A stretch of 64,000 bases of DNA from a virus (IMGVR_UViG_3300033144_005525:95402-159401), one strand, 5' to 3'. Counted from the first letter of the stretch, positions 1,881 through 54,657 are shown. The notes: generated by a model not told the origin, from the sequence alone. A program made the numbers and translations.

Positions 1881-3215
1881 TCAAGGCATGAAGGCGCGAG
1901 CTAGAGCGACCTTCTCCTGAGCTGGAGCTGGCTGCCCCTGCTGCTGTTGTCCTTGCTGATCCTTCTGTTGATCTGCAGGACTCTTGGCGTTGGGTGAGTT
2001 CGGATTCGTGGGCTTGTTGAACGGCTGCGGGGTGTTCATGGCCTTGATGGCCTCGTCCAGAGTGGCCGAATCCGCCTTCTGCATCTCTGCGACGAACTTC
2101 TGCACCTGAGCAGGGTCGTTCATCTGAATACCTGTCTGCTGCTCGATCTCCTCGAGCTTCGGGGCCCAGCGAGCCATGGTCTCCGGATCCACGCTCGGGT
2201 CGACTTGCTGGATCTTCTGGTCGGGAGGCACTGGGGGCTGAGCTTCGCCCATTGGGCCAGACTCGGGGCCCATTCCACCAGCTTCGGGGCCCATGCCGCC
2301 CATGCCCATCTCTGAGCCTGCGTCCGGATGCCTGGCAGCCTCCACGAGCTCCATCATGTTGCCCTGGGCCGACGGAGGTGTCTGGGAAGGCGCCATGGGA
2401 GACGGCTTGTAGCGGTTGGCAGGAGACTGCTGGACGGCGGCTCCGGGCATGGGAGCCATCCCACCCTGAGCTGGGTCCGGGGGAGGCATGGCAGGCATAG
2501 CGGCGTCCTGAGCCCCTCCCATACCACCAGCCGCTGGGTTGCCTCCACCAGCACCCATCAAAGCAACCTTGACCAGCTCCAGGTCGGGCACCCAGTTGCG
2601 CTCAGCCAGCTTGCGGAGCACCAGATCCTGGATGTCAATGTGAAAAGAGCTAGCCGTCTTGACAAGCTCAGCTGGCCCATGACCCGCGGCACAAGAATAG
2701 AGAGACAGGGTGTCCTCGTCCAACCGGTGACCTGCAGCTACCTTCTGCAGGTCGTGGTCCAGGAGAGTGTAGAACCGGGCCTCTAGCAGAGCGTCATCTG
2801 CATTGAGGCCTAGTACTCCCGCCGCCTTGTGAAACACGGTCTCATCGACAGGAAGGCTGCCGCCCCAGCGAGAGAATACGGCAGTTGCTAGTTCTTGATC
2901 CATGATTCCAGCCCTCTTTTCCTTCTGGCTGATTCGTCCGGCTGCGAGTCCTGCTCCACCAGCTCCTACAGAACCTACAGCGATACCTTTACGGTAACCC
3001 TTGCCTATTCTGTACTTCTCATTACTCCAAGCATCCATCTGCTCCATCTTCTTCTTGATGGATGCTATCGCGGACGGATCGTTAGTAGCTGCCTCAACAC
3101 TCTCCCTCACACCGATGGGATGAGGCTTCTTGGCAGCTGGAGGAGGTGGACCAACTACTCGCTTTGCCTTGCCAACAACTGTTCGGAGACCTTGCGCGAA
3201 AGGTTTAATGTCCAT
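1881..3215 (-). CDS. Probable internal head protein with K-x-A motifs and a Pro/Gln/Met-rich region
   Basis: 444-aa ORF with EKRA, QKVA, VKTA, RKLA, VKVA and EKVA motifs and a low-complexity C-terminal half; lies next to the tail tube gene. Confidence 0.65.
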   Translation of the reverse strand: MDIKPFAQGLRTVVGKAKRVVGPPPPAAKKPHPIGVRESVEAATNDPSAIASIKKKMEQMDAWSNEKYRIGKGYRKGIAVGSVGAGGAGLAAGRISQKEKRAGIMDQELATAVFSRWGGSLPVDETVFHKAAGVLGLNADDALLEARFYTLLDHDLQKVAAGHRLDEDTLSLYSCAAGHGPAELVKTASSFHIDIQDLVLRKLAERNWVPDLELVKVALMGAGGGNPAAGGMGGAQDAAMPAMPPPDPAQGGMAPMPGAAVQQSPANRYKPSPMAPSQTPPSAQGNMMELVEAARHPDAGSEMGMGGMGPEAGGMGPESGPMGEAQPPVPPDQKIQQVDPSVDPETMARWAPKLEEIEQQTGIQMNDPAQVQKFVAEMQKADSATLDEAIKAMNTPQPFNKPTNPNSPNAKSPADQQKDQQGQQQQGQPAPAQEKVALARAFMP

Positions 3216-3284
3216 CGATTCCAGCCCCTTGCAGGTAGTGAGTTACTAAATTAGTACCAACTAGTAACTAATTAGTAATCGGAC

Positions 3285-4004
3285 CTAGAAGCCCGAGACG
3301 GGGTTGAAGTCACCGCTGACGAGAGCCAGCGAGCTCACTGCGACCGGAACACCACGCTCGAACTGCATGGCAGCGTTCTCCTGGATCACAGTCCCGCCGG
3401 CGTCGGTGGCGATGGTGTGGGAGGGGATGTAGGCCTCTTCCAGGTAGATGGCCCCAACCGTGTCCTCGTTGGTGTCCCGGAAGTACATCAGGAGGCCGAT
3501 CGGCTGAGAGAACAGGTCCGAAGCGAGGTTCAGGAAGATGTTCTCGTAGCCTGCCGGGATCTTGACGTTGTGTGGGTTGGCGACAGTCGCCGGCGCCACG
3601 TTCTGGAAGACGAACGGGACGATGGTGGGCGGAAGGAGGTCCTGGTAGTAGGCGTAGAGCATCCGGAGGAGACTCGGCCCGTGATACATGACCCTGGACA
3701 GGGACACCTGGCCGACTGTACGACCAGAGATGAAGTAGGACCGCTCCGACCCAACTTCCCAGAACCGAGCAAACGACCGGTTGTGGGAGAGGTTGATGTT
3801 CTGGACCACGCCGATGGGCATGGCGAAGTCTTTGCCTGAGCCCTCCACCGACAGTGCTGCCGCAACCCCTGTAGCACCGCCTACATTGGCCAACCGAGGA
3901 GGCCCGGCTGCCAACATGGTGAATGCGGCGGACATGAACTGACCGTCCACCAGACCGCCTTGAACGTAGCGGTTGTATGGCTGCCATTCGCTGAGCTTTG
4001 CCAT
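3285..4004 (-). CDS. Tail tube protein
   Basis: Directly downstream of the sheath; PIGVVQNINLS...FWEVGSERSYFISGRTVGQVSLSR is typical of myovirus tube proteins. Confidence 0.8.
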   Translation of the reverse strand: MAKLSEWQPYNRYVQGGLVDGQFMSAAFTMLAAGPPRLANVGGATGVAAALSVEGSGKDFAMPIGVVQNINLSHNRSFARFWEVGSERSYFISGRTVGQVSLSRVMYHGPSLLRMLYAYYQDLLPPTIVPFVFQNVAPATVANPHNVKIPAGYENIFLNLASDLFSQPIGLLMYFRDTNEDTVGAIYLEEAYIPSHTIATDAGGTVIQENAAMQFERGVPVAVSSLALVSGDFNPVSGF

Positions 4005-9730: not shown

Positions 9731-10699
9731 CTAAGCATACCCTCGGTCGCCCACAGATCTGGAATAACCCTCGACACCAGCCTTCTTGGTTTTCCTGGAC
9801 CGTTTATCGGTCTTCTTCTTGCGGCGAGCTCTCCACAATATAGATCCTCCCATAACACCCAGATAAGCGCCGGGAAAGATTAACTTCCTACTAGGGAAAT
9901 GCTTGGCGAAATGCTTGGCTTTGGATACTGCTCCCACAGCAGCTTGTTCAACTTGAAGAGCTGCTTGATGCTTGTTTTTGAGGGCAGATCCTATTGATCT
10001 ATCGAAGGAAGAGGGAAGAGCTGGTCCTGATGAATGTCCCAAACTATTGGACCACGCCTTGAATCGTGCATCTTTCGCATCTCGTAGAGCCTTCTTGGCT
10101 CTTCGTTGCATGACTGCTCCAGCCAGTTCACCAGAGCTCCCACCTACCAGAGCTCCCGCTGCGGCTCCTCCAAGTATATGTCTGCCGGCAGAGTTTTTCT
10201 TCGGCTTCTTCCTGGCCGCTACTTTGGTTTGAATCGGTTGGGTCATCTGCGCCGTGCTGGCGATGATGGGACTGGGAGTTTGCGTGACGTGAGGCTTTGG
10301 TGGACGCCCACGAAAGGACTGCTGGATCTCAGGAGGCTTCGGTTGCTTTGGAATAGGGATAGGCACCATGGCTGCCTTGCCCATCATCCCAGCTACACCA
10401 CGACGAGCCTTCTGCGCTCCCCAACCCGCTGCTCCACCGACTAGAGCTCCCTTGGCTGCTCCACCCATGGCACCTTGAAGTCTCTCACCAGGACGAGCCT
10501 TTGCTGCTCCGAGACCTGCTCCAGCCACAGCTCCGTACCCTGCCATGCGCATGGGCTTGAGCTTGTTCATCAACGAAGGAGCTGACTTCGCTTTTGGAGT
10601 GAACTTGAGTCCAGCCTTGATAGCAGAACCAATATTCCCGATAACTCCGGCCGTCTTATCCGCGTGAGGTTCGGCGTTGTCCCCAGCGGTTAGAAAGGG
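9731..10699 (-). CDS. Basic glycine-zipper protein, probably made as a -1 frameshift extension of 10690..11907
   Basis: The frame is open through 10699 with no ATG/GTG/TTG until 10573; the unannotated 5' part encodes DKTAG; repeated GAAxGALVGG segments. Confidence 0.7.
   Translation of the reverse strand, partial: PFLTAGDNAEPHADKTAGVIGNIGSAIKAGLKFTPKAKSAPSLMNKLKPMRMAGYGAVAGAGLGAAKARPGERLQGAMGGAAKGALVGGAAGWGAQKARRGVAGMMGKAAMVPIPIPKQPKPPEIQQSFRGRPPKPHVTQTPSPIIASTAQMTQPIQTKVAARKKPKKNSAGRHILGGAAAGALVGGSSGELAGAVMQRRAKKALRDAKDARFKAWSNSLGHSSGPALPSSFDRSIGSALKNKHQAALQVEQAAVGAVSKAKHFAKHFPSRKLIFPGAYLGVMGGSILWRARRKKKTDKRSRKTKKAGVEGYSRSVGDRGYA
10650..10699 (-). promoter_or_regulatory. Programmed -1 ribosomal frameshift signal (slippery heptamer plus hairpin or pseudoknot)
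   Basis: C CCU UUC is in the correct X XXY YYZ phase at 10699-10693; stem ccgc-ugggg / ccuca-c-gcgg follows; loop gccg is complementary to downstream cggc. Confidence 0.7.
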
Positions 10700-11907
10700 A
10701 GTACTACCGACGATGCCTTCTTACTCATCACGGTGGGCTTCTTGACTACAGTCTTCTTCCCAGCTTGCGAGGCTCTAGTAGCTGCCCTGCGTACTTGTGC
10801 AGAGATGAAGGCGCGAGAGTAAGCTTCCTTGATCTCCTCAGCAGTCTTACCAAGCACAAACTTGGATCCAGGAGCTCTTCCCTGAATCGAGGCGGAAGAC
10901 AGCCTCCTGGCAGCCGCATCAGCTGGGATGGGTGGAGGTGTTTTGAGTAGACCGGCCGACCTCATCGCTTTGGAGGTACCTGAGCGAGTGACCTTGGTCC
11001 CTCCCTTACCGACTGAGCTCCCTATGGTTCGTAGGATGCTCTGCGTCGCGGGGGACATGGCATTTTTGGACATGGCCTGCCTTGCCGAAAGGATCCCAGG
11101 ATGCTTGGACCTGTTCATGGCCTTGGCTATTCCGGCTCCTCCAGCGGCTCCAACCGCTCCACCTATGAGAGCCCCTTTTGCAGCTCCTCCTGCAGCTCCT
11201 CGAAGTCTGTTGCCTTCTCCCCCACGTATGGCTCCTCCGACGGCACCTATTCCTCCACCCACTAGCGCTGTGTTTCCTGCACCTCTCAAGGCCATCTTCC
11301 CGACATTGATTAGAGGAACTCCAGCGAACTTGGTCATGGTCTTCTTCAGACCACTCTGCAACATCTTGCCCCCACCAAATCGTCCAGCACCGTAACCAGC
11401 CATGGCGCCTGTAGCGAAGTCTCCACCCGTGGCCTTATTGGCAACACCACCACCAATTGCCAAAGCAGCATTGGGGTTCTTCATCGCCTTGGACATGACT
11501 TTGGATCCTGCGCCGCTCGTCATGACCTTTTTGGCTACACCGCTAAGCAGCTTGCCCACGAAGGCTTCCTTCTCCAGGTAGTCACCCAAGGACCCACCGT
11601 TCTCCAGAATGAAGGCCATCTTGATGGCATCATCATCTGACATGTCGGCTACGGCCTGGGTGAGTTCGTTCTGCTCCAACACAGCTTGCTCAGCTGCTTC
11701 AGCTGGAACAGATCCTTGCTCCTGAGCAAGCTCGCGACCCATCTGAGTGGCATCGGCGATCTTTTCTTGTAGAGCGTCGAGTGCCGCTGTGGGATGGGGC
11801 TGCTCTGCTTCACGGATCTCATTGATCGTGAGCTGCTCGAGCTGCTGAGCAACGTTTTCTTCTTGCCTCGGCTGATCGGCGCAGAGTTTCACTAGCCAGT
11901 TGTGCAT
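10690..11907 (-). CDS. Head-region protein with an acidic N-terminus and basic glycine-zipper modules
   Basis: 405 aa; GAGG upstream; EKIA, IKMA, EKEA, TKFA, GKTA, IKEA and KKAS motifs; ends on the heptamer C CCT TTC then TAA. Confidence 0.8.
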   Translation of the reverse strand: MHNWLVKLCADQPRQEENVAQQLEQLTINEIREAEQPHPTAALDALQEKIADATQMGRELAQEQGSVPAEAAEQAVLEQNELTQAVADMSDDDAIKMAFILENGGSLGDYLEKEAFVGKLLSGVAKKVMTSGAGSKVMSKAMKNPNAALAIGGGVANKATGGDFATGAMAGYGAGRFGGGKMLQSGLKKTMTKFAGVPLINVGKMALRGAGNTALVGGGIGAVGGAIRGGEGNRLRGAAGGAAKGALIGGAVGAAGGAGIAKAMNRSKHPGILSARQAMSKNAMSPATQSILRTIGSSVGKGGTKVTRSGTSKAMRSAGLLKTPPPIPADAAARRLSSASIQGRAPGSKFVLGKTAEEIKEAYSRAFISAQVRRAATRASQAGKKTVVKKPTVMSKKASSVVLPF

Positions 11908-11916
11908 GATTTCCTC

Positions 11917-13503: not shown

Positions 13504-13507
13504 GGCT

Positions 13508-14038
13508 CTACACCGTGTAGACGAGAATGAAGGCACCGTTGTCATCCAACAGCAAATGCTCCACCGTCAGCAAACCAACAGATCCTTTATTGCCGACAGC
13601 AGATGCACCTTCTGAGAATAGAAGGTCTTCATCTGTTGTGGCGCCAATGGCAGATGACCCTGGAGCAATACGCAAGGCATACCCTGGGTCGATCAGAGCG
13701 TGAGTGATGGTGAGCCTGTCTCCTGTGTTGGAGATGACGAACTCGGTAGGCAAGACGGCCCCATCCCAGCGAGCTCCTGTGTTGAGCTCGGCCAGGAGTG
13801 CAGCGATATTGGCATGAGGTCCCGCAGCACCCACCGTGAACGTTCTGCGAAACGCAGTCCAGGTATTCCCTCCGTCGGCGCTGCCCTCGACAACCAATAT
13901 CTCATTGACACTACCGAAAGTGAATCCGAAGGTCTGAACGCCACCTAGCAGTACGGCAGCGGCTGCAGCCGTCGTGATGAACTGCTCTAGATCAGCAGCA
14001 TTCTGGAAGACTCGGATTCTATGATCTGCGAGAGCCAT
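13508..14038 (-). CDS. Virion protein: paralog of the 48-aa upstream protein carrying a tail-sheath-like inserted domain
   Basis: Both termini align with 14048..14194 and the middle aligns with sheath region 5840..6183; AGGAG RBS. Confidence 0.8.
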   Translation of the reverse strand: MALADHRIRVFQNAADLEQFITTAAAAAVLLGGVQTFGFTFGSVNEILVVEGSADGGNTWTAFRRTFTVGAAGPHANIAALLAELNTGARWDGAVLPTEFVISNTGDRLTITHALIDPGYALRIAPGSSAIGATTDEDLLFSEGASAVGNKGSVGLLTVEHLLLDDNGAFILVYTV

Positions 14039-41900: not shown

Positions 41901-44900
41901 TCAACCCACTCAACACCACGGCGGGTCCAGGTTTCTGCGGTGTGCCTACGAACACAGGGTTTGGCATCGGCTCTGCCAGAGCTATGTGAGACCAGTTGAG
42001 TCCTTTGCCAGGTTCGTTAGGACTAGGTAGACCTCCAGTGATCTCTGGATCAAATAATCCCTTCTCGAGCTCCTTGGCATCCTTTCCACGAAGCACACGA
42101 CCAGCATCTTTGATCTCTCCATTCGAGAGATTCAAGACCCCTTTGTCTGTGAGAGGGACAAGCTGCAGCTCATTTCCCTCCTTCTTAGTGTCGATGCCTA
42201 ACCCCTTCAGATAAGCCTCAAACTTCTTGTAGGCAAAAGTAGGGCGTGGCGCAGGAATTGGCTGCCCCATCTGCACACGATGCCAGAAGTCTACGTGCGC
42301 TTGCGGATTCATGTTGTCGTCTACCTGACGATCCGCCTTGTACGTGGCCATCTCCTTTAGGTTCTCACGAGCTCCATGAGCCAACAGACTGTAGAACTCC
42401 AACTGTCCGATTCCCTGCCCCGGATGCTCTGCCCCCGTACCCTTAGGAGCACCGTCGATGGAGTAGTTGGGTCCATGACTTCGGACAGTCAACTTCTTAT
42501 CCACCTGATGCTTGAGTTTCATAATGTACTGGTCCCCCGTCAGTACATTTCCAATCCTCTTCTTGGTCTCTGGATCAAACAGCTCTTCTTGATCCGATAG
42601 CCCATGATTAGCCAAATCCTTCTTCACACCCTCGGTGTAGTCGATGTTGGCCCCACCAAAGTTGTTCACCAAGTAAGGACGACCTGTCTTCTTGGCTATT
42701 TTGCTGGAGGCTGTCTCCAACATTTGACCCAAGTTGATGCGACTGGGCACACCAGACGGATTCATCAGCACTTCTACATGCTCTCCGTCAGGACTCCCCT
42801 TACGTGGCATCTCTGCGTTGGGAATTATCTTGGTGATAATGGCCTTGTTTCCGTGGCGACCAACAATCTTGTCACCCACCTCGGCAGGCTCTTCTGTGCG
42901 GATGTGAACTACAGCACCCTTCCCATTCGGGATCTTATGTACCTTGACCACCTCACCAGGATTCTGAGACTCCCACTTGGAGCTTCTATCGGCGTACTCG
43001 AACAGCTTCCTGTCCAGTCTAGAGGCCATACGAGAGACAACGCCGAGGTTCTCCCTCTTCCCGACGGCAGCCACCAAGATGTCCCCAGTGTCCACTTTCT
43101 GCCCTACACGAATGACCCCATCGTCATCCAGTTTATCCAACTGCTCTCGAGTCATTTGCTTCGAAGTAGTGGAAGCGTATGCCTGGAACTTCTTCTTGTT
43201 CATGAAGTCTTTGGAAGGGTCAATCTCCACACTCTTCCGATAGACATGCTCTGAAGTAAGTTTGTCGGCAGCTGAATCAGAAATGACGATGCCGTCCTCG
43301 AAGTTGTAACCCTTGTAAGGCAGGTAACTAACCCGCAGGTTTGTTCCCAGCGCTAGTCCACCATCCCTGGTGAAGTTCGTGTCGGCCAGGACCTGCCCTT
43401 TCTTTACCTCAGCACCGACCTCTACTACGGGCTCTGAGTTCATGAAGGACTTTGCGTCATTCAGAGGGAAGTGATTGTAGAGCTGTACCTCGTGCTTCTT
43501 TCTATCCTTCCCCTTGATGATAATCGAGTCCGGATACTCGTTGTCGGTCTGATCAGAACGGATCTTCAAGACCTTTCCGTCAACAGGAGAGGAGTGAGAG
43601 AACGGACCACCAATGATCTTTTCCCAGCTATCCTTTCCTCCACGTACCTGGACAAGTGGAAGCTCTCTATCCCTCAGACCCACTGCCTGGTTGGCTTGGC
43701 GAGAGGCCGTCATCGTCCTGTTGCCCTGGTTGTTCTGAAGGAACGGAATCAGGTTGGTGGCTTCATCGAACAACTGATGAGGAGATACAAACAAGTAGCG
43801 AGCCTTCTTGAAAGGCTGCTTGATGATGTCCCCTGTCTTGGGGTCCTTCATCTTCACTGTGGGGGATATAGGCTTGGGGCCTTTTCCATCCTCCCATGTG
43901 ACTTGATCAGGAAGTAGGACGTACTCCGAATGGAGCTCCGCTGGAGTGACTCCGTTCCTACCCTTCCTGAATTTCTTTTCCTTCAGGTCGTAGACCAGTG
44001 CCTTGACGTCTTCCCCATCCTTGACGACACCCATAGGCAAGTTGAGGCTGATGCCTGTTCTCTTGCTCTCCGGTGTGTGGATAGGATCCAAGAAGCCCAT
44101 ATGGCTGGGGTTGATGAGTTTCATAGAGCGGGACAAAGTCCTCTCGCTCTTGATCCCTCCCTCTTCTCCCCCAAGGATGGTAGTAGCTCGATGGTTGGAG
44201 AGCATCTCCAGAGGATTGACCTGCTCCGGATTCTCTGACAGAGAGGATCTGGTGAACACTTGATCGACGTGCCTACCGAACAGGTCTCCCGATACGACTT
44301 CTCGTACCTTGTCCTTCCTGTTGATGTTGTTACTGATCTTCCTCTTGATCTCCCTCTGAGTAACGGCTTTGCCGATCCTCTCCAACAGGAAGTCGTCTAC
44401 ACTGGTGAGCTTTTTGAACACCAGAGAGTCTCGATCATCTGGTGGAGCTTCACCTCGAGCAACTTCAAGAACTCTCCTGGACGCTTGCAGCAGTGCATCA
44501 CCAGTCACCGTCTTGTAGGGCTTACCAAGAGTACGTTGGGTAGTCTCTGGCAGTAGCTCGGTGTTACCGAACTCTTCTACTACAGCACTGGCGATATCGT
44601 CGTACGTGTCACCCTTGGCCTTCACACCTCTTTGGCTGATTTTGCTGTAGAGCTGCTTGATGTTTCCTTCCGTCTTGTCTGTGACATTGGCCTTGTAGAT
44701 GTCTGGTCCCCAGACCTTCTTCATCTCTTCGTCCTGGACACCCAAGGTCTTCAAGATGGAGTAGAGAGGTATGTTCTGGGTCCCCCATCTCATCTTGAAC
44801 GCTTTGGTCTTGGGGCTGAATGGGACCTTCAGCCTGGACTCTCGAGCGAAGGGCTTGGACAGTGCGAACTCTGTCTCTAGATCTCCATTCGCCTTGATCT

Positions 44901-45264
44901 GAGAGTACACACCAGGACGGAGTCTCCAGAGGTTCCCTACTTGCCTTTCATTGCCTCCGACGATGTAGCTGTATCGGTCGGTCGGTCTCGGTAAGGTAAA
45001 CAGTTTTACCTTAGAGCGATCGACAACCTTGCTGGTCTTCTTATCTACGAGGCTGATATCCCCATACACACCAGCTCCCCAAGTTCTATTGGACAGCTTG
45101 GCCTTTTCTTGGCTTCGAATGTCACCGGATTCAGCAGATCGCTGATCTACGATAACCTCGTTTAGAACCAGTTTGCGGGTCTGTCCATCGACCGGAAAGC
45201 TAGCCTTGACAGACTTGACCGCGCTGCGCTGTAAATCTTTCCAAGTATCGGCTGGTGTTGTCAC
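38950..45264 (-). CDS. rpoBC: Single-chain DNA-directed RNA polymerase, fused beta and beta' subunits
   Basis: Beta motifs GYNFEDG, GDKIVGRHGNK, NPSGVPSRINLGQ and KLKHQVDKK are followed in the same frame by beta' motifs LLKRDPALH, catalytic NADFDGD (41005-41025), bridge helix HGARMG and trigger loop GEPAMQL...FHTGG. Confidence 0.95.
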   Translation of the reverse strand: MTTPADTWKDLQRSAVKSVKASFPVDGQTRKLVLNEVIVDQRSAESGDIRSQEKAKLSNRTWGAGVYGDISLVDKKTSKVVDRSKVKLFTLPRPTDRYSYIVGGNERQVGNLWRLRPGVYSQIKANGDLETEFALSKPFARESRLKVPFSPKTKAFKMRWGTQNIPLYSILKTLGVQDEEMKKVWGPDIYKANVTDKTEGNIKQLYSKISQRGVKAKGDTYDDIASAVVEEFGNTELLPETTQRTLGKPYKTVTGDALLQASRRVLEVARGEAPPDDRDSLVFKKLTSVDDFLLERIGKAVTQREIKRKISNNINRKDKVREVVSGDLFGRHVDQVFTRSSLSENPEQVNPLEMLSNHRATTILGGEEGGIKSERTLSRSMKLINPSHMGFLDPIHTPESKRTGISLNLPMGVVKDGEDVKALVYDLKEKKFRKGRNGVTPAELHSEYVLLPDQVTWEDGKGPKPISPTVKMKDPKTGDIIKQPFKKARYLFVSPHQLFDEATNLIPFLQNNQGNRTMTASRQANQAVGLRDRELPLVQVRGGKDSWEKIIGGPFSHSSPVDGKVLKIRSDQTDNEYPDSIIIKGKDRKKHEVQLYNHFPLNDAKSFMNSEPVVEVGAEVKKGQVLADTNFTRDGGLALGTNLRVSYLPYKGYNFEDGIVISDSAADKLTSEHVYRKSVEIDPSKDFMNKKKFQAYASTTSKQMTREQLDKLDDDGVIRVGQKVDTGDILVAAVGKRENLGVVSRMASRLDRKLFEYADRSSKWESQNPGEVVKVHKIPNGKGAVVHIRTEEPAEVGDKIVGRHGNKAIITKIIPNAEMPRKGSPDGEHVEVLMNPSGVPSRINLGQMLETASSKIAKKTGRPYLVNNFGGANIDYTEGVKKDLANHGLSDQEELFDPETKKRIGNVLTGDQYIMKLKHQVDKKLTVRSHGPNYSIDGAPKGTGAEHPGQGIGQLEFYSLLAHGARENLKEMATYKADRQVDDNMNPQAHVDFWHRVQMGQPIPAPRPTFAYKKFEAYLKGLGIDTKKEGNELQLVPLTDKGVLNLSNGEIKDAGRVLRGKDAKELEKGLFDPEITGGLPSPNEPGKGLNWSHIALAEPMPNPVFVGTPQKPGPAVVLSGLKYPEFEDIVKGKKDIDGKIGGEAIRHLLDQVDVDAELKKTVAELPNLRKAKLNHANRKAKYLRALKELKLSPSEAYVMNNVPVIPPVFRPIVPMPDGSLRFDDINHLYKDLGIVNNKLKDKILDLPEADQPLREELYDLLKATMGTGGVPQYESNRQLKGILDTVAGPSPKQGFFQRKLMKRRQELSMRSTIIPEPEMHLDRVGIPRSAAMELYKPFVIRELKRTGRSPLQAHKDIKEETAVAWAALEKIIEDRPVLLKRDPALHKFNFMAFKPQLVDGKAIRIHPLVTAGYNADFDGDTMSAFVPLTDKAVRESRKMFPSNNLFSSTNGGVMYAPEQESLLGIHLLSKWGKDVGKKFSTYADAKKACDRGIVTAQDVVTVNGKKTTVGRLMLAHQLPKRFRDNKDLLHNPRFVLNKFSDSKDKNKVGVHDILSEIARDDPRNYANTVDRLKNLGNQHSYEFGFSIGLSDLGLGEDKAVREEILAKADVVAAKIMAGKLSQEDKDIKLVANYTKATDDMKKKLKPRIEASGNNIFTMVDSGTRGNWSQFRQMNIAPMLMQDATGRTLPTPVRKSYSEGLDVGDYWTALHGARMGTLQRAEGTSEPGMLTKEIVNTVIPEMIVSKDCKVGDGISMGIHEEDVHGRYLAKKVKAGGRLHEEGSLVTPHLLSQLKKNGVGKVVVRSPLKCSHGRGICSKCFGLNENGEDHSVGTNIGVIAGHALGEPAMQLAMDSFHTGGVAGSRGAGAVSRIGRLKQLLNPPKKLPGSATLSRVGGKVQKIERDKDTQGWNVYIGGEKHYAPSQRKLLRDGKPLQVGSSMKKGSPLTDGPINPRELLPLTDIPTVQNYLTKELYDGIYKDERVKRRNIEMVVRSLTNLTQVKDPGDSDYFSGDIVLRSVIEEENKKAGSRSAPVTHRPVIKGLSQGALDQQEDWMARLNFRKLKETLMEGASKGWKTNLHGNNPIPAYAYGAEFGEGTPKKTHLY

Positions 45265-46136: not shown

Positions 46137-46441
46137 TGGTCATTTGCTGTGGGTGCGGAGACCCTTTCGCTGCCGCAGACGGTGGCCTGATGATCAAGCC
46201 AGTTGTTGGCGTGGCCAGTCCCAAGTCAGGCAGATCCATACCTAACGAGAGTACGTTTCCGGACGGATCGAGGGAAAAGTTCCTATGCAACACATGCTGC
46301 TTTTCGGCAACTGAGGTAGGTGTCGTAGTTGGAATCTACGATACCGGCTACGACTTCCCCCACGAAAAGGAGGTGCACCCTGGCGCAGTGTCTGGAGTGT
46401 TCCCAACCTATCAACTTGGGTCAGGAGTTCATAAGAATTGA
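46137..46441 (+). CDS. Small Zn-finger protein
   Basis: AGGAGG RBS before ATG 46137; CCGC...SPKSGR...CNTCC. Confidence 0.6.
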
Positions 46442-46778
46442 AACTGGAGTAGTAGTGGTGTCGAAAAAGTCTGGGCGACCACTACCTCTATCTAATTCTG
46501 GGGAACTGATCCACAACGTTTGTTTCCAATCCTACTTGGTGAATACCAGCAACCAACTGTGGGACCACATCATCACTATCCTGCAACCAAAAGTCAGGAA
46601 AGAAGTTCTTCAAGAGCTTGGGGAAGAATTGAAGCAGGAAGCGTTCGACGAAGCAGTGGAGGAGCTAGGCAGGACATGTGTTGTGTGTAGCGAGGAGATA
46701 GAGTTCATGGCTGAGACGGATCCGACCGAAATCCAGCCTCACCATTCAGCTCTTCCTCCACCACTCTCTCACTACTAG
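46380..46778 (+). CDS. Zn-finger protein paralogous to the upstream gene
   Basis: CLEC...SKKSGR...HNVC plus CVVC; AAGGAGG precedes an in-frame CTG at 46380 (the ORF track start is 46329). Confidence 0.6.
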   Translation: MAQCLECSQPINLGQEFIRIETGVVVVSKKSGRPLPLSNSGELIHNVCFQSYLVNTSNQLWDHIITILQPKVRKEVLQELGEELKQEAFDEAVEELGRTCVVCSEEIEFMAETDPTEIQPHHSALPPPLSHY

Positions 46779-46788
46779 TAGATAGCAA

Positions 46789-46830
46789 AGAGAAAGGCGG
46801 GGGTTCCATACCCCCGCCTCCTCTCTTTTA
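46789..46830. terminator. Bidirectional intrinsic terminator
   Basis: agagaaaggcggggg-ttccata-cccccgcctcctctctttt between convergent genes. Confidence 0.75.
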
Positions 46831-46843
46831 GCTAGTTGCTGCC

Positions 46844-49522
46844 CTACGAACAGCCTGTAGTTGCTCCACAGTTGCTGCACAGAAAACAGGAGCCGGACCT
46901 CTTGGTCAAGCTGCCACAATCTGAGCACGGTGGACCGTCGTAGGCGATCGTCAAATCCACCACCTGGATGGGAGGTTTGACGATAGTTGATCCAGAGGCT
47001 TCCGCTTTCTTCGGCTCCTCTTCCGACAGGTAGCGGAGCTCTATCCACCTAAAGAGATAGTCGATGATGGACTTGGCAATGCTGATTTCATCGTCACCTG
47101 TGAAACCGGCTGGCTCGAAGCTCGTACCCTTGAACTTGTCGCAGAGGAGCTTGACCGGAACACCATGTTGGATCCCGAAGGACACCGACTGGGCGAAGCA
47201 CTCGAGTATTCCTCCCAAGAAACTTCCCTGCTTGGAAATCCGAACGAAGATCTCAGCTAGGGTTCCATCCGGATACTCCCCAGCCGTGATGTATCCCTTG
47301 ACGTTAGCCACTCGGAACTTGTGGGTGACTGAGTTTCTTGTGTTCGGCAGATCTTTGCGCTCTCCCCACTTCCTGATGGAGAACCCATCCTTGTGCTCCA
47401 GCTTGGTAGCAACGGGCTGGGATAGCTTGCACCCACTCCTATAGATGGCAACGCACTTCAGGCCACCCCTCCACGCCTTCATGTAGATGTCTGCTACGTC
47501 TTGAGAGGTAGCATCCTCTGGCATGTTGACGGTCTTGGAGATGCCTCCCGACAAGAAAGGTTGAACGGCCGCCATCATGTCGATATGCCCTTGCGGCTTT
47601 AGAGCATGTGACCCAAGGGACCCAGCGAAGATCTCGTTGTGCTCCTCTTTGAATCCGGGAGCACCGTGAATGTCCCCATTGTTCCTGATGTAGTTCTCGA
47701 TCTCACCGATTTGATCGTAGTCGTAACCCAGGTTGAGTAGGGCAGGACCCACCACGCGGCTAGGCAACATCAAGACACCCTCTCCGACGATCTTCTTGTA
47801 GACCACGACTCCCAACATCGGCTCAATGCCTGTGGTATCGCAGTCCATCAAGAACGAGATGGTTCCCGTCGGAGCTAGCAGAGTAGTTTGTGCGTTTCGG
47901 AACCCCCACATCTTTCCGTTGGAGTAAGCACTGATCCATGCATTCATCGAAGACTTGGCCAGATCGGTCCAAGGTTTATCGATAGGGACCGGAATCTCCC
48001 TGGCGCTTTCCAGATGCCTCTCGATCACCGCCAACATGGGCTCTCGGTTCTTCTCGTATTCCTGGAATGGTCCTTTTGCCATAGCCAGGATCGCCGATTG
48101 GTCGTAAGCCCTGCCGCCCATCAAGGAAGTGATGAGAGCTGCCACGTTCCTACCCTCATCACTGTCGTAGGGTAGACCCCAAAACGTGAGGAGGGCACCG
48201 AGGTTGGCATACCCAAGACCCAACGGTCGGAACTTGTGACTCATCTCCGCAATTTGCGGACTTGGGTAAGAAGCAGCATCGACGATGATCTCTTTAGCTA
48301 TGATGGCAATGTCGATGGCCTGTAGGAAATCATTCACCAGGAACCCATCATGCTTGGCGAACTTCATGAGATTAAGGGATCCCAGGTTGCACGCCGAGTT
48401 GTTCAGGAACAGGTACTCTGAACATGGATTCGTGGCAGTGATCTCCCCACTGTTCGGGCAAGTGTGCATCTCGTTGATGATGGACTTGAACTGCAGTCCA
48501 GGGTCACCACAGAGGTGCGCTGCGTCACTCATCTCTTCGAACATCTCCTTGGCCTGGTAGTGCCGATGATCGGAGCCGTCCGCGTACTTCGTGGTCCACA
48601 CACTGTCGTCCACCACCCCTTGCATGAAATCATCTGATACACGCACGGAGTGATTGGCGTTCTGGTAACCGACCCTGTCGTAGACGTTCCCTCGGATGTT
48701 CCACTCCGCAGAGTACTTCCCAGTCTCGTACAGGGCTTGAGCCTCCCTCTCTGCATCCGCCTTGCAGCCGATGAATCCAGGAAGACCATTCCTCTGGGCG
48801 ATGATGTCTGGATGATCGGCATCGAGAACATTCATCTTCGCGGCACGACGAGTGGTGCCTCCGGATTTGGTGACTCCGGCAAAAGCGTCGTACCCCTTCA
48901 TGAACGACACAGGTCCCGATGCGTAGCCTCCTCCCGATAGTTTTTCCCAGGAACTACGTATGGAGGACAGATTGGCTCCGGTACCGGAACCGCCTTTGAA
49001 CAGCATGACCTCTCGCTTGGCGAGATCCATGATGTCACTCATTGTGTCGTCCACTCCCTGGATGAAGCACGCTGAGCATTGTGGGTCTTCCTTCACCCCT
49101 ACGTTGAACCAAACGGGAGAGTTGAAGGCGTACATCCCATTCACTAGGAGATGCAGGAGTTCCAGATGGAAGATGTTGGAATCTTCCGGGAGGATTACAC
49201 TCTGCCCCACACCTTTTTGAGTGATCCATATGGCCACTCTGTTGAACATCTGCTTGGCCGAGAACTCCTTTACCCCACTGACTACGCGAAAGTATTTCTC
49301 GACAACGATGTTGATCGTGTTGTCGGACCACGTCGATGGCACTTCGACGCCGTCCTGACGGAACTTCTCGACTCCATCCGCACCGATCAATACGGCGTCT
49401 GTAGTCACCCATTCAATGGTGTCGAAAGGGTGAGCACCCTCATCGACGAAGTGGCGCTTCACGCTCAGTGGACGATAGTCGTCCTTGACTGCCGTTGACT
49501 CTGGAACGACGGTAGTCTCCAT
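46844..49522 (-). CDS. nrdJ: Class II (adenosylcobalamin-dependent) ribonucleotide reductase
   Basis: FNSP, QCSACFI, GGTTRRAAKM, TNPCSE, APTGTIS and AIYRSG motifs, a C-terminal TSCPD-like domain and a Zn ribbon. Confidence 0.95.
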   Translation of the reverse strand: METTVVPESTAVKDDYRPLSVKRHFVDEGAHPFDTIEWVTTDAVLIGADGVEKFRQDGVEVPSTWSDNTINIVVEKYFRVVSGVKEFSAKQMFNRVAIWITQKGVGQSVILPEDSNIFHLELLHLLVNGMYAFNSPVWFNVGVKEDPQCSACFIQGVDDTMSDIMDLAKREVMLFKGGSGTGANLSSIRSSWEKLSGGGYASGPVSFMKGYDAFAGVTKSGGTTRRAAKMNVLDADHPDIIAQRNGLPGFIGCKADAEREAQALYETGKYSAEWNIRGNVYDRVGYQNANHSVRVSDDFMQGVVDDSVWTTKYADGSDHRHYQAKEMFEEMSDAAHLCGDPGLQFKSIINEMHTCPNSGEITATNPCSEYLFLNNSACNLGSLNLMKFAKHDGFLVNDFLQAIDIAIIAKEIIVDAASYPSPQIAEMSHKFRPLGLGYANLGALLTFWGLPYDSDEGRNVAALITSLMGGRAYDQSAILAMAKGPFQEYEKNREPMLAVIERHLESAREIPVPIDKPWTDLAKSSMNAWISAYSNGKMWGFRNAQTTLLAPTGTISFLMDCDTTGIEPMLGVVVYKKIVGEGVLMLPSRVVGPALLNLGYDYDQIGEIENYIRNNGDIHGAPGFKEEHNEIFAGSLGSHALKPQGHIDMMAAVQPFLSGGISKTVNMPEDATSQDVADIYMKAWRGGLKCVAIYRSGCKLSQPVATKLEHKDGFSIRKWGERKDLPNTRNSVTHKFRVANVKGYITAGEYPDGTLAEIFVRISKQGSFLGGILECFAQSVSFGIQHGVPVKLLCDKFKGTSFEPAGFTGDDEISIAKSIIDYLFRWIELRYLSEEEPKKAEASGSTIVKPPIQVVDLTIAYDGPPCSDCGSLTKRSGSCFLCSNCGATTGCS

Positions 49523-49597: not shown

Positions 49598-51667
49598 TCA
49601 CACTAGCTGAACTTGACGGCGGGGCGGTTTTACTTCAGGCAGTGGGCTCTGCATAGGACTCAAATTGTCCGACTGCGATCCCTGTCCTGACTGCAAGATC
49701 CGAAGCACCAGCATGTAAAGCTGCGGATTCTGTGCCCTCATCTGCATCAACGCCATCTGCTGTTGCGAATCTTCATACTGGGAGATCGCAGAGGCAGCCC
49801 TTTGGGCAAGGTACAGAATATTCATCTGCCCACCAGCTTGCTGCTGATTGAGCGGAGACTGGACCTCGACCGGTAGTCCCTTAGCAGGTGGAGTCGTTGA
49901 GTTCTCTGGATACGCAGTGGCGTCTGCCGGCATACCCGGAGCCGCCTGCTGCCCTACCATGGGCTGCTGATCTGTCATGCCGGCGGCTGGCGGCCCTCCC
50001 GCCGGGGGACCTCCGCCGGACGGTGGAGTAGGGACAGACTCCGGGTTGTCTGCGGTGGCACCGCCCGCTCCAGCCCCCATCCCTTGAGGATTCGGCATTG
50101 TTGGAGTCATGCCGCTCCGACCCATGATAGCCATCGCCTGGGCCTGGTAGCGGGCCTGGACTATCTGCAGGTCTCCCTGCAGTGCTGCACTAGCAAGCTG
50201 CTGCTTGCGCTGGTTCTCAAGCTGCTGGGTGAGCTCGGCCTTCTTGTGCTTCTCCTCCTGGACGATATCCACTTCGACTTCATCGAGCAGAGTCGTATCA
50301 GAGATCTTCATGGCCTGATTCATCTGGAAGATCAGGGCAGTACGCTGGAGGTCATCTGCCATCCGGAACCGACGGAAGTGGACCTTGGGAGCAGACCAAC
50401 CCATGTAGTTGGCGACACGACCGAGGATGAAGTCTCGACAGAGGATGAGTTGGTTGGTGCGGTAGCCGAGGAACTGATTCTCGAGCATCCGCATGGAGAC
50501 GTTGGAACCGCTGTACTGCAGACCACCGAACACGAATTCGATCGGAACGTGCATGCCGGCCACGATCTGCTCAGACCAAGCCCTCATCTCCTGGTGGAGC
50601 ATCAAGGCTTTGCCCTCTCCACCGATGGTCTCGTTCCCCACAGGGAGTGGGAGGATCGGGATGTAGTTCTGGTCCAGCTTCCACTTCTCGATCTCTGCCT
50701 CAATACGTCGACGCCACATACTGAGATCAGCTGTGGAGTACGGGTCCGAGCTCGAGCTCCCAGCCTGTGGGAACAGGATGCGGAGAGGAACGATGTACTG
50801 CTGAGCGATGGCCTCCTGTGCCTTGCGTAGAACCTGAAGGTAGTAGGTGTCTTTGAGGACCGGGAGGATGAGTGGGATGCCCCAACCTTGGTCCTTCTGG
50901 GCAATGGTTGGACGCTTCAGATGGAACACCTCGTTGTCCCTGAAGCGGAGGGACTTGGAGCCCTTCAAGGCCTCAACGAACTCATTGGGTATCGCCTCAA
51001 TGACGTGGCGCTTACCCATCATGATGTCGTTCTTCAACCCAACAGGTACATCGAAGAAGAACTCCGACTTACCTGTAACCTCATTGTGCTCAACCGTGAT
51101 GTGCTCTGGGTTCCAACGGATGAGTTTGATACCTCGCAGATCCTTGATGTTGTGGTCGTACACCATGGCTTCTGTAGTGGTGATGCACTTGGGACAAGCC
51201 AGGTAGTACTTGAAGTTGCGGAACTTGTAGGCTGCGTTCTTCGCCTTCTGTTGTTCGTGGCAGTTGCGGCAGATCAGGTACTTCTCAAACGGGAAGTGAA
51301 TCGTGATGAACGCATTGCCATAGCAGAAGTAGTCGAGACCGGTCTCAATCTGAAATGTCCGCAGTTTGAGAACGTTCTCGATGACATTCTCCCACTTTCC
51401 TCGTAGCTCTGGGTCTTCTTCATCTACGACCAGAGGTGTAATCGGGTACTCCGCCATCTTGTACGTGACGGCATTGATGAGTGGGTTGACCAGGAAGTAG
51501 TACCGACACCACCTGAACATCTGCTTGACCGAAGTCGGCAGATAGGTGTGTCCGATATCGAAGAAGGGGGAAGGGTACCGCTGAGTACCGCTGTTCCCTT
51601 GGTTGTGGGTGGTATCGAAGCGAGCGGTGCTTCCAATGAACCCTGATCCCGGAGTGCCGGTTGACAT
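49598..51667 (-). CDS. Portal protein with a Zn-finger insertion and a long Pro/Gln/Met-rich tail
   Basis: DYFCYGNAF, VFHLK...GWGIPLI and IVAGMHVPIEFVFGG are portal-type motifs; CRNC...CPKC insertion. Confidence 0.85.
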   Translation of the reverse strand: MSTGTPGSGFIGSTARFDTTHNQGNSGTQRYPSPFFDIGHTYLPTSVKQMFRWCRYYFLVNPLINAVTYKMAEYPITPLVVDEEDPELRGKWENVIENVLKLRTFQIETGLDYFCYGNAFITIHFPFEKYLICRNCHEQQKAKNAAYKFRNFKYYLACPKCITTTEAMVYDHNIKDLRGIKLIRWNPEHITVEHNEVTGKSEFFFDVPVGLKNDIMMGKRHVIEAIPNEFVEALKGSKSLRFRDNEVFHLKRPTIAQKDQGWGIPLILPVLKDTYYLQVLRKAQEAIAQQYIVPLRILFPQAGSSSSDPYSTADLSMWRRRIEAEIEKWKLDQNYIPILPLPVGNETIGGEGKALMLHQEMRAWSEQIVAGMHVPIEFVFGGLQYSGSNVSMRMLENQFLGYRTNQLILCRDFILGRVANYMGWSAPKVHFRRFRMADDLQRTALIFQMNQAMKISDTTLLDEVEVDIVQEEKHKKAELTQQLENQRKQQLASAALQGDLQIVQARYQAQAMAIMGRSGMTPTMPNPQGMGAGAGGATADNPESVPTPPSGGGPPAGGPPAAGMTDQQPMVGQQAAPGMPADATAYPENSTTPPAKGLPVEVQSPLNQQQAGGQMNILYLAQRAASAISQYEDSQQQMALMQMRAQNPQLYMLVLRILQSGQGSQSDNLSPMQSPLPEVKPPRRQVQLV

Positions 51668-51670
51668 TGG

Positions 51671-52258
51671 TTACCTACCCTGCTGAAGCGTTTGCATTGC
51701 AGCAGCTCTTTGTAGCAGAGCATCACGCCGTGCTGGATCTTGGATTGGAGGCTGCGCAGCAGCTTGACGAGATCTCTGCCATGGCAACGTAGACACCTTC
51801 TCTCCCAACAATCCGCCTGCGATAGCCCCACCGATACTGCGAATAGCTCTACTGCCGATGATGGGAAGACCTCTTCCAGGAGCACTCAGTAAAGCTCCTG
51901 CTCCGGCTAGTCCTCCTAGCATCATGCCACCGTACCCAGAGACCCTCTCGGTTCTGGATCGTCCCATACCCATTGGATCTTGTTTAGCCAAGAGACCAGG
52001 AATGGCAGGCACACTAAGTCCCACCATCAAGGACTTCCCACCGATAGGAAGATGCCTACGAATGGCGGTGGGTTTACCCTTTTTGTTTTTCAAGGCTCCG
52101 AACCAACCACCGCGAGCTCCTCCTTCTCCCATGTCATCCCAGCCCTTGGACACCCACTTACCTACCGTCTTACCTACCCTAGATATCACCCCGGGACCGG
52201 CCGCTATCTTTACCAACTCATCACCGAACGCAGAGTAGGTTTTGGAGTCCATGATCAC
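51671..52258 (-). CDS. Basic Gly-rich membrane-like protein with an FGDELVKIA leader
   Basis: Leader motif plus glycine-zipper segments. Confidence 0.7.
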   Translation of the reverse strand: MIMDSKTYSAFGDELVKIAAGPGVISRVGKTVGKWVSKGWDDMGEGGARGGWFGALKNKKGKPTAIRRHLPIGGKSLMVGLSVPAIPGLLAKQDPMGMGRSRTERVSGYGGMMLGGLAGAGALLSAPGRGLPIIGSRAIRSIGGAIAGGLLGEKVSTLPWQRSRQAAAQPPIQDPARRDALLQRAAAMQTLQQGR

Positions 52259-53208: not shown

Positions 53209-53220
53209 CGGTCCTGGAGA

Positions 53221-54657
53221 CTACTCTTCGCCGTCCCCAGAGTGGTCTGAGCACATGACCATTCTCGCCAGCACCAACTTGTTGGGTGTCGGAAGAGCCA
53301 TGAAGAAGGTCTTGGGGCTCTTGCTGAACTCATCGGCGAACTTGTCACCGAAGGCATCACTCACTGAAGGCCGACCATTCCTGGCCAAGGCCTCCAGACC
53401 TTTCTCGTCGATGCGAACACCCTGCTCATCCCACACCCACTCTTCAGCAGCCACCTTCTCATAGGAAGCTCCGAACGTAGACGCCCACGGGTCTGGTACT
53501 CGAGCATCCCACTCGTGGTGTAGGTTCGTCATCTGATCAAACTCACACAGAGCCTCGGCGAATGTGTCTGGAGAGACCATCGCCTGTTTCTCCATGAGTA
53601 CATCCAGGGCCGGGTGGAACTCCTCATGAACGAATCCACGACGGTAGCCCACGTAGGCCTGCACATCCCCACCGAAGCCTTCTGAGGCGTACTTCTCGAT
53701 GGCCCCGGTCACAGGGATGGAGAGCTCCGTCATCCTGGAGGCCAGCTTGATGCAGTACTCTCGTCGATCCCGGGGATGGAACCGGCGGATATACTCCCCA
53801 AAGTAGACCTCTGCCATCTTGACCTGGTCGTAGGAGTCGACCGGGAACTTACCCCTCAGGAGGGTGCGGGATGGAACGGACGCTTCCTTGATGATGTCTG
53901 CTCCAGGCTCCCAGTCCTGCACGTCCACGTAGGGAGACGTGCGCCAGTTCTGTTGCCTTGTCTCGACATTTGAGGAGTTCAGTAGTGCCAAGGTGGCTGG
54001 ATCGGCGGCGGCCATCTTCTCTCGATCGATGCCGCTGCCTTCTGCATTGCTGAAGCGCTCCTTCACCGTGAAGGGGGGAGCTTCCAAGAAGTTGGAGCCC
54101 ATCACACCTTTGTGATTGGTCCTCTTCTTGACATCCGGATCTGTACCGTCTCCTTGACCGAGCTGAGGCTCCATCGTGGATTCCTTGGAAGGCTCTGGAA
54201 CAGGGAACTCCCCACTCCGCTCGAGCTGAATGTTCAACACCTTACGAAGGTAGGGTTGCTGAGCCTCCCCTGACACCCCACTCACCCCAGTCTTTGCGGC
54301 CAGCTTGAGCTGATGGGGTACATCCAGGTTGAACCGATTGCAGGCTTCAACCAGATTCGATGCAGCCACCTTCACTGCCTTCTCGGGAAGGAAGTGGGCT
54401 TGCTTCAACAAGTACAGGACAGACAGAGCCGTGTTACCGGCATCCACTGTGGCGTACTTCTTGAACTTCTGACCTTCCTTGAGGAGTACCAGAGCGTAGT
54501 TGTCGTCTGGCAGTGTTGCCGATTCCTCTGGAGTAATCCGTTGGGCTTCTTTTACGAAGTCCGGGATCTCTGAACTGTCGGGAATGATGGTCCGAAGGGT
54601 CTCCCCGGACATGTCATCGTACGAATCAAACACGACTCCTGCTAGCTGGCTCATCAA
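53221..54657 (-). CDS. Virion-module protein with about 11 K-x-A motifs
   Basis: 478 aa; AGGAG RBS; first gene of the portal operon. Confidence 0.75.
   Translation of the reverse strand: MMSQLAGVVFDSYDDMSGETLRTIIPDSSEIPDFVKEAQRITPEESATLPDDNYALVLLKEGQKFKKYATVDAGNTALSVLYLLKQAHFLPEKAVKVAASNLVEACNRFNLDVPHQLKLAAKTGVSGVSGEAQQPYLRKVLNIQLERSGEFPVPEPSKESTMEPQLGQGDGTDPDVKKRTNHKGVMGSNFLEAPPFTVKERFSNAEGSGIDREKMAAADPATLALLNSSNVETRQQNWRTSPYVDVQDWEPGADIIKEASVPSRTLLRGKFPVDSYDQVKMAEVYFGEYIRRFHPRDRREYCIKLASRMTELSIPVTGAIEKYASEGFGGDVQAYVGYRRGFVHEEFHPALDVLMEKQAMVSPDTFAEALCEFDQMTNLHHEWDARVPDPWASTFGASYEKVAAEEWVWDEQGVRIDEKGLEALARNGRPSVSDAFGDKFADEFSKSPKTFFMALPTPNKLVLARMVMCSDHSGDGEE

Follow-up and report, generated by a model that had tools for sequence, protein, structure and literature searches.

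In a 64,000-nucleotide window of viral DNA (bases 95402-159401 of the 191-kb IMG/VR virus record IMGVR_UViG_3300033144_005525), the tripeptide Lys-x-Ala (K-x-A) is strongly over-represented in five proteins (z = 4.7 to 6.9) and clearly over-represented in two more (z around 3). We think it likely that K-x-A is the core of a prohead-protease code, φ-x-K-x-A↓(S/A/G), where φ is a hydrophobic residue and the arrow marks the predicted cut, and that this system includes short N-terminal leaders on 14 head-region proteins. Below, we refer to genes by their lower coordinate in the window; they are on the minus strand unless stated otherwise.

To obtain expected counts, we shuffled each protein 2,000 times while keeping its composition. 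The five strongly enriched proteins are the products of 18597 (18597-20054; 485 amino acids (aa); 17 K-x-A versus 6.0 expected, z = 5.2), 21853 (21853-23976; 707 aa; 17 versus 6.4, z = 4.7), 24940 (24940-25962; 340 aa; 9 versus 2.0, z = 5.3), 35858 (35858-37840; 660 aa; 13 versus 3.3, z = 5.9), and 53221 (53221-54657; 478 aa; 13 versus 2.6, z = 6.9). The other two are the products of 21177 (21177-21794; 205 aa; 6 versus 2.2, z = 2.9) and 18199 (18199-18549; 116 aa; 5 versus 1.7, z = 3.0). A first-pass annotation of this sequence had reported more than 12 copies in the 485-aa protein and about 12 in the 660-aa and 707-aa proteins; the actual counts are that high or higher, and the excess stands up to composition-preserving shuffles in all seven proteins. 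The excess is marginal in 10690, 11917, and 1881 (z = 1.7 to 2.2). Counts do not exceed expectation in 9731, 20340, 32096, 52255, the capsid protein, the portal, the terminase, the polymerase, or any plus-strand gene, so the dense K-x-A that had been described in 9731, 32096, and 52255 is no more than composition predicts. Across the 208 open reading frames (ORFs) of the whole genome, no further gene with more than one copy stands out.

A scan of genes picked by position only removes the bias of a hand-picked motif, so we took the ten genes that separate the terminase from the capsid gene and scored every testable dipeptide in them, 1,431 in all, allowing gaps of 0-3. K-x-A ranked first (62 versus 25.7, z = 8.5). 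L-x-K and K-T come next, and both belong to the longer signal that contains K-x-A. Elsewhere in the window, leaving aside 35858 and 53221, K-x-A is at expectation (89 versus 85.3), rather than sparse as had been suggested. Within the enriched set, both the spacing and the order of the residues matter: there are 90 instances of K-x-A, versus 20 of KA, 25 of KxxA, 32 of KxxxA, and 20 of AxK (alternatives range from 18 to 32). Similar tripeptides are not enriched, including R-x-A (11 versus 17.0), K-x-S (14 versus 19.5), and K-x-G (20 versus 24.2), and V-x-A (27 versus 27.5), L-x-A (20 versus 30.2), I-x-A (11 versus 16.3), and H-x-A are flat or low. The occasional K-x-S/G variants of the first-pass annotation thus have no statistical support in this genome, although Gly or Ser does stand in place of the Ala at a few orthologous sites. 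The enriched proteins have no detectable homology to each other and no internal repeats, so they are not paralogues.

The signal extends beyond the tripeptide. When we pooled 12 proteins, K-x-A reached 88 versus 31.2 (z = 11.4), and E-K-x-A (24 versus 2.1), [LIVMF]-x-K-x-A (46 versus 7.2), and K-x-A-[SAG] (46 versus 9.0) were enriched as well. The longer consensus is a hydrophobic residue at -2, often Glu at -1, Lys, Thr/Ile/Leu/Val, Ala, and then Ser/Ala/Gly. We also scored sites with a flank matrix that was trained on other genomes only, with a null rate of 5% for "good" sites. By this measure, 59 of 166 K-x-A sites in head-region genes are good, versus 10 of 151 elsewhere. Eleven proteins have at least three good sites, and eight more have one, which is mostly N-terminal. 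The earlier estimate of about 20 motif-rich proteins thus holds in this loose sense, but only seven proteins are strongly enriched, and the scale is smaller than had been stated. As a control for the method, we ran the same dipeptide scan on the scaffold protein gp22 of phage T4. L-x-E ranked first and I-x-E fourth, which recovers the established motif of the T4 protease gp21; K-x-A ranked 26th.

The K-x-A excess persists in orthologues at 30-40% identity. For these comparisons, we fetched 80 related metagenomic loci, with capsid proteins that are 63-89% identical to the one in the window. Orthologues of 18199 (n = 77) average 4.7 K-x-A versus 1.4 expected, orthologues of 24940 (n = 32, 30% identity) average 8.4 versus 2.4, with z of at least 3 in 91% of them, and orthologues of the 707-aa protein average 13.7 versus 5.9. 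Single-sequence scans of viral contigs found no relatives of 35858 or 53221; we took their orthologues from the genomes of the related loci. Both keep the excess in five complete relatives (z = 2.8 to 6.5). Orthologues of 35858 carry 13-16 copies (z = 2.8 to 6.2), with sites 254 and 576 kept in all five, and orthologues of 53221 reach z = 4.2 to 6.5, with sites 36, 67, 96, and 304 kept in all five while the middle residue varies. Orthologues of the capsid protein, its 156-aa neighbour, and the terminase retain no excess. We found no orthologues of 1881, 9731, 10690, or 11917 in the fetched loci, so any K-x-A excess in those proteins stays marginal.

Many individual sites keep the Lys and the Ala in register at 80-100%, with the middle residue and the neighbours varying, as compared to 26-39% conservation for background residues. 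For instance, sites 58, 308, and 444 of 18597 are 88-100% conserved in 17 orthologues, site 47 of 18199 is conserved in 95%, site 22 of 21177 (LEKTA) is conserved in all 23 orthologues (100%), and site 177 of 24940 is 97% conserved. Other K-x-A sites turn over among orthologues, as expected for short linear motifs. Conservation in homologue alignments had been proposed as a check on the motif, and both the excess and many of the sites are retained. These comparisons show that K-x-A is under selection.

The motif is also prominent in cultured phages. The capsid protein shares 29% identity with its counterpart in the Salmonella myophage Arash (an orphan) and 26% with the one in Vibrio phage D69. 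We chose the head blocks of cultured relatives by position and scanned them for all dipeptides. K-x-A ranked first in D69 (44 versus 16.3, z = 7.6), in Arash (39 versus 17.2, z = 5.7), and in phage G (17 versus 7.5, z = 3.7), and it ranked 11th in Mycobacterium phage I3 (22 versus 12.4, z = 3.0).

The one mapped cut that bears on this motif is in the capsid protein of phage G. The major capsid protein of the virus in the window (16514-17635; 373 aa; phrog_2522) is homologous to phage G gp27 and has EKVA at residues 23-26, as the first-pass annotation had seen. We predict that K24-V25-A26 (17558-17566) is the maturation site, with a cut between A26 and A27 that would remove a 26-residue propeptide. 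Across 69 sequences, K24 is 99% conserved and A26 is 97% conserved, with Ile, Leu, or Val between them. In phage G, N-terminal sequencing showed that the capsid protein is processed from 282 residues (31.2 kDa) to 255 residues (28.2 kDa) (Hua et al. 2017, PMC5646251). Removal of 27 residues puts the cut at ...EEGRVALA27↓Q28AMAN, and residues 28-282 compute to 28.17 kDa. BLASTP aligns the two capsid proteins (E = 3e-9) with an ungapped N-terminus and an offset of one, so that K24-V25-A26↓A27 falls exactly on A25-L26-A27↓Q28 of phage G. This places the scissile bond after a small residue, as in herpesvirus assemblin. At the same place, the capsid proteins of Arash and D69 have K-E-A↓G, and that of I3 has R59-L60-G61↓Q62. 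The phage G alignment is a new, indirect measurement of the capsid cut; it supports the position of the cut and Ala as the residue before it (P1), not the role of Lys. Searches of the Protein Data Bank (PDB) by sequence found no solved relative of the capsid protein, and literature searches found nothing on the capsid N-termini of phages I3, Bxz1, or Myrna.

K-x-A sites also mark the N-termini of other head-region proteins. Of 39 head-region genes, 14 have a good site in their first 50 residues; of 168 other genes, 5 do (Fisher P = 5e-8). Five genes in the genome, two of them outside the window, have [SA]F-x-DE[LI]-x-K[IT]A, or a looser form of this pattern, at their start. These leaders read ...SFSDELTKIA in a 64-aa protein (30524-30718), SAFGDELVKIA in a 195-aa protein whose gene adjoins the portal gene (51671-52258), and AFSNELSMIKTA in an 88-aa head-block protein (20064-20330). 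Outside the window, they read ...AFCDELEKIA in a 207-aa protein (genome positions 46380-47003) and ...SFISEISKIA in a 199-aa protein (genome positions 167596-168195); on the strength of their leaders, these two are candidate packaged proteins that are encoded far from the head block. In the relatives, the small ORF at the position of 20064-20330 begins with [SA]F-x-DE[LM]-x-K[IV]A. The relatives contain 37 matches to a stricter pattern, F-x-x-E-[LIMF]-x-K-[ILVTM]-A, and 31 of these are at the start (first 40 residues) of small ORFs.

The probable enzyme is the 707-aa product of 21853, in which a leader at the N-terminus is followed by a prohead protease domain, an InPase domain, and, at the C-terminus, a helical region. 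An AlphaFold2 model of residues 1-270 (predicted local distance difference test (pLDDT) of 78) has T4 gp21 as its best match in the PDB (5jbl; Z = 9.1; root-mean-square deviation of 2.9 Å over 132 of 164 residues), and herpesvirus proteases match next (Z = 5 to 7). Foldseek E-values alone are weak for this model. The predicted protease domain (residues 41-252; 23221-23856) is the part that is common to all orthologues. Across 30 sequences, His123/His124 (23605-23610) and Ser180 (23437-23439) are invariant; the His precedes the Ser, and they are 56-57 residues apart. The gene lies within the head-assembly block, between the terminase and the scaffold and capsid genes, and Arash, D69, and phage G share this gene order. 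The modelled fold indicates that the 707-aa protein begins with a prohead protease of the gp21/assemblin type, in agreement with its earlier annotation as a protease. Homologues of the protease domain are present in Arash (40% identity), in D69 (39%), in phage G (gp19; 33% identity, E = 2e-17), and, at 30% identity, in more than 200 cluster C phages of Mycobacterium, Gordonia, and Rhodococcus. Some orthologues have an insertion of about 35 residues after a Cys-x-x-Cys in the protease domain.

Orthologues of the protease range from 526 to 1172 aa: the N-terminal 250 aa or so are conserved, and the C-terminal extension varies. The first-pass annotation had claimed that K-x-A falls at module borders, and this is supported for this protein and for 32096 (see below). 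The protease domain closes with KSAKMLAKLA (23224-23253), which contains two K-x-A and is a candidate self-release site. In 30 orthologues, this domain end, GADK[TS]AKVMAKLAS, is near-invariant, and homology stops there. The InPase domain (PF18823, E = 2e-35; residues 306-434; 22675-23061) opens with K-T-A at 306-308 and is followed by K-K-A at 439-441 (22654-22662). Site 439 is kept by 94% of the orthologues and site 463 by 81%; both are in linkers with pLDDT below 50. The full-length model is poor (pLDDT of 52, from six sequences), and we used only its coarse confidence profile. In that profile, all six of the well-conserved K-x-A sites are in segments between domains with pLDDT below 50. 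Among the non-conserved sites, 137, 403/404, and 507 are inside folded blocks, and 220 and 348 are in short low-confidence stretches. The InPase domain is inside the protease protein in some genomes, and in this genome it is also found in 32096. An extreme case of the protease-plus-cargo fusion is found in cluster C mycobacteriophages, where a protein of 1408 aa has the protease domain at its N-terminus (phage I3, 11833-16059; K-x-A 18 versus 7.9).

We propose that the product of 21853 is a capsid-maturation serine protease with cargo modules fused to its C-terminus. Inside the assembling prohead, it would recognize hydrophobic-x-Lys-x-Ala before Ser, Ala, or Gly and would cut after the Ala. 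It would strip the 26-residue propeptide off the major capsid protein, chop the 116-aa scaffold-like protein and the core proteins (485, 205, 340, 232, 660, and 478 aa) into short pieces, free both itself and its InPase module by cuts at the K-x-A on either side of each domain, and clip short N-terminal leaders from about 14 head-region proteins. The leaders may act like the capsid-targeting sequence of T4. The first-pass annotation had already proposed that the protease cuts after K-x-A, and the motif does behave as a cleavage footprint: it ranks first among dipeptides, it is conserved in register, and it coincides with the cut in the phage G capsid alignment. We infer the identity of the cutter, the role of Lys at P3 (two residues before the Ala) as a determinant, the number of sites that are used, and targeting by the leaders. 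The "many small packaged proteins" and the "cargo-loading grammar" of the earlier proposal would be possible consequences of such cuts.

Several observations weigh against this proposal. The only mapped cut comes from phage G, where P3 is Ala instead of Lys. No curated protease family in Pfam (E ≤ 0.01) or PHROGs (E ≤ 0.001) matches the protease domain; only phrog_16951 and phrog_2774, both of unknown function, cover its residues 92-256, which implies that it belongs to a separate sequence family with the same fold. The remaining points would also fit a different role for K-x-A, as a docking or assembly motif that is bound and not cut, with the capsid propeptide site as the only one that is cleaved. 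The motif might, for example, contact the inner surface of the capsid, the portal, or the protease, and so recruit core proteins. Several conserved sites in 35858 and 53221 are in predicted helices or well-conserved stretches and are possibly structural. Also, the 2104-aa RNA polymerase and its orthologues show no depletion of K-x-A (66 versus 74.9 in total). We had considered avoidance in the polymerase as evidence for cleavage (7 versus 12.4 in this genome), and we rejected it because the five orthologues are not depleted. If the bare tripeptide has no visible cost in the polymerase, then the context must decide which sites matter. Finally, the reported virion proteome of Arash lists the K-x-A-rich gp220-gp225 at 80-100% coverage, so these proteins or their fragments stay in the particle instead of being expelled. 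This dataset also lists many enzymes, and it gives coverage and annotation without peptide termini. Its coverage values look inflated (for instance, 100% from two peptides), so we rejected it as a test of cleavage and used it only to show that K-x-A-rich proteins are detected in particles. On the other side, a footprint of exactly this kind is what the known cleavage motif leaves in the T4 control. The sites flank domains and end N-terminal leaders, and the homologous capsid position truly is cut in phage G. Furthermore, sites recur at intervals of 12-30 residues along the 116-aa scaffold-like protein, which is what a degraded scaffold should show. We consider docking without cleavage to be unlikely.

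It is less likely still, indeed very improbable, that K-x-A is cut by another enzyme, be it a protease of the host or the cysteine peptidase in 32096, which is C39-like. This papain-like domain is encoded in the same region, and the protein that contains it bears a K-T-A leader itself. But three of the five complete relatives lack the C39 module and yet keep the K-x-A excess, and C39 peptidases cut after Gly-Gly, which does not fit. The motif instead tracks the gp21-fold protease across phages of Proteobacteria, Bacillus, and Mycobacterium, whose hosts are unrelated. Nor do we give much credence to the idea that the excess is a by-product of composition, of helices rich in Ala, Lys, and Glu, or of repeated homologous segments. 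The proteins are indeed rich in Ala and Lys and are largely helical, and the marginal cases 9731, 10690, and 11917 are of low complexity. However, z is about 5-7 despite shuffles that keep the composition, the other spacings and the reverse order are flat (18-32 versus 90), and R-x-A, K-x-S, K-x-G, and [VLI]-x-A are not enriched. The enriched proteins share no homology, the Lys and the Ala stay in register while their neighbours drift, and the helical T4 scaffold has no K-x-A excess. This explanation is largely refuted, and it is the least probable of those that we considered.

If the protease does cut after K-x-A, then the motif might have a further use. The leader [SA]F-x-D-E-L-x-K-I-A, together with the internal K-x-A linkers, could be a transferable address-and-release tag: an enzyme that lies behind a leader, or that is strung between K-x-A linkers on the protease, would be carried into the prohead and freed after the Ala. 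The candidate cargo would be the InPase, the C39 peptidase, and perhaps the helicase. We hold this idea tentatively, and suspect that it is wrong rather than right. If true, it would account for the varying C-terminal extensions of the protease among relatives (proteins of 526 to 1172 aa) and for the movement of modules between genes, and the same code would be in use from mycobacteriophages to Vibrio and Salmonella phages.

The product of 32096 (32096-34372; 758 aa) illustrates such modules. According to Pfam, it contains a C39-like peptidase (residues 18-155) and an InPase (residues 524-656). Its K-x-A count is ordinary, and five of its six sites read K-T-A. The K-T-A at 15, 181, 522, and 663 are on the edges of the C39 and InPase modules, and such a coincidence with the borders has a probability of about 8e-4. 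The relatives have separate proteins for these two parts, one for C39 (9-182) and one for InPase (about 514-667). The InPase domains in 21853 and 32096, the C39-like peptidase in 32096, and the SNF2 helicase in 34373 resemble a polyvalent or DarB-like set, and there are PHROG matches to DarB-like and minor head proteins.

Turning to the other K-x-A-rich proteins, those of 18597, 35858, and 53221 are family-less, and 18597 has no PHROG or Pfam match. The scaffold-like product of 18199, which is encoded just upstream of the capsid block, has K-x-A at residues 5, 35, 47, 66, and 91, and all five pass the flank matrix. A 187-aa plus-strand ORF (18025-18588) overlaps this gene and is probably spurious, given that the minus-strand product has 77 orthologues. 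The 340-aa product of 24940 is the counterpart of Arash gp220. The 232-aa product of 23985 (23985-24683) is weakly similar to Arash gp221; its four K-x-A are not significant by count (4 versus 1.9 expected), and the sites near its N-terminus, at residues 9, 23, and 46, pass the flank matrix. Among the marginal cases, the 444-aa product of 1881 (1881-3215; 7 versus 4.0) has six sites within residues 100-216, and three sites pass the flank matrix. The 405-aa product of 10690 (10690-11907; 10 versus 5.5) is rich in Ala, Gly, and Lys. It is one of three fast-evolving Gly/Ala/Lys-rich proteins (280, 405, and 542 aa) with glycine-zipper-like stretches that are encoded at 9731-13545. The 542-aa ORF probably starts at 13503, not 13545, because the upstream gene ends at 13508.

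In the order of transcription, the minus strand encodes the 478-aa (53221), 317-aa, and 195-aa proteins; the portal (49598); a ribonucleotide reductase (46844); the 2104-aa RNA polymerase beta/beta'-like protein (38950); a 369-aa protein and the 660-aa protein, both unknowns; the SNF2 helicase (34373); the C39-peptidase/InPase protein (32096); the terminase (27219); the head-assembly block (24940-17688); the capsid gene (16514); and downstream genes. From the terminase, the head block runs 340, 86, and 232 aa, the protease, 205, 253, 88, and 485 aa, the 116-aa scaffold-like protein, 156 aa, and the capsid protein. The first-pass annotation had treated 1881-54657 as the head region; this range includes head genes, and it also holds the ribonucleotide reductase, the RNA polymerase, the SNF2 helicase, and the terminase. 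The portal protein (49598-51667; 689 aa) was identified by BLASTP to phage G gp14 (E = 3e-18), and its K-x-A count is at expectation (3 versus 2.5). The terminase large subunit (27219-29048; phrog_675, E = 1.5e-66) has no K-x-A, versus 1.5 expected.

The polymerase is a single ORF (38950-45264, minus strand) that matches the PHROG families for both RNA polymerase beta and beta', and the match to Arash gp216 covers the C-terminal third. Some relatives have the polymerase as one ORF of 2087-2142 aa, and in others it is split. Polymerase subunits are reported from the virions of Arash. The head genes are interrupted by one for an HNH endonuclease (14218-15030, minus strand), which is separated from the capsid gene upstream of it by about 1.5 kb and three small ORFs. 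An HNH gene is found at the corresponding position in phage I3. In genes outside the head block, the strongest gapped dipeptide is C-x-x-C (22 versus 2.3, z = 14), which points to many zinc-ribbon-type proteins.

If our proposal is correct, then there is a clade of phages whose proteases use Lys-x-Ala and cut after Ala, which would link phage and herpesvirus enzymes by their specificity as well as their fold. The clade covers phages of Salmonella, Vibrio, and Bacillus, along with the Bxz1-type phages of Mycobacterium, and accounts for over 200 records in the phage collection. For hundreds of phages, cultured and uncultured, one could then predict from sequence where capsid, scaffold, and packaged proteins begin and end once mature, and the leader could serve to load foreign proteins into the capsids of this clade. 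The code is directly testable in phages that are already in culture.

The characterized prohead proteases of T4, phiKZ, 201phi2-1, and SPN3US all cut after Glu: the motif is (L/I)-x-E in T4 and (A/S/G)-x-E in phiKZ and SPN3US (PMC5694885). We searched the literature for a prohead cleavage rule of the Lys or K-x-A type and found none. The putative protease described here resembles T4 gp21 in its fold, in its neighbourhood by the scaffold and capsid genes, and in the removal of a capsid propeptide (which is predicted here). As in T4, a three-residue motif is statistically visible in the scaffold, and short N-terminal leaders end in the protease motif, which is also how the leaders of this phage resemble the T4 capsid-targeting sequence. 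Unlike in T4, the footprint is K-x-A and the cut would be after Ala, the protease is outside the gp21 sequence profile and is fused to InPase and other C-terminal modules, and the capsid propeptide is just 26 residues.

As with phiKZ gp175 and SPN3US gp245, one short motif would serve many head proteins, the protease would cleave its own C-terminus, and the neighbouring genes would include those of packaged ejection proteins and of an RNA polymerase carried in the virion. The (A/S/G)-x-E motif of those phages differs: A-x-E (40 versus 31.4), S-x-E, and G-x-E (15 versus 22.5) are not significantly enriched here. Neither is I-x-E (12 versus 9.7), and the value for L-x-E (33 versus 18.9; z of 3.3) does not exceed the noise expected from multiple testing, nor is this motif among the top ranks of the unbiased scan.

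Herpesvirus assemblin cuts after Ala and before Ser, at (V/L/I)-x-A↓S sites with a hydrophobic P3. Its fold is related, and the predicted sites share Ala at P1 and are followed mostly by Ser, Ala, or Gly; P3 here is Lys, and V-x-A, L-x-A, and I-x-A are not enriched. Phage G differs in that its capsid site is A-L-A↓Q instead of K-x-A and in that gp19 has 300 aa and no long cargo extension. Still, gp19 is a homologue of the protease domain, K-x-A ranks first in its head block, and the cut in gp27 aligns with the K-x-A of the capsid protein.

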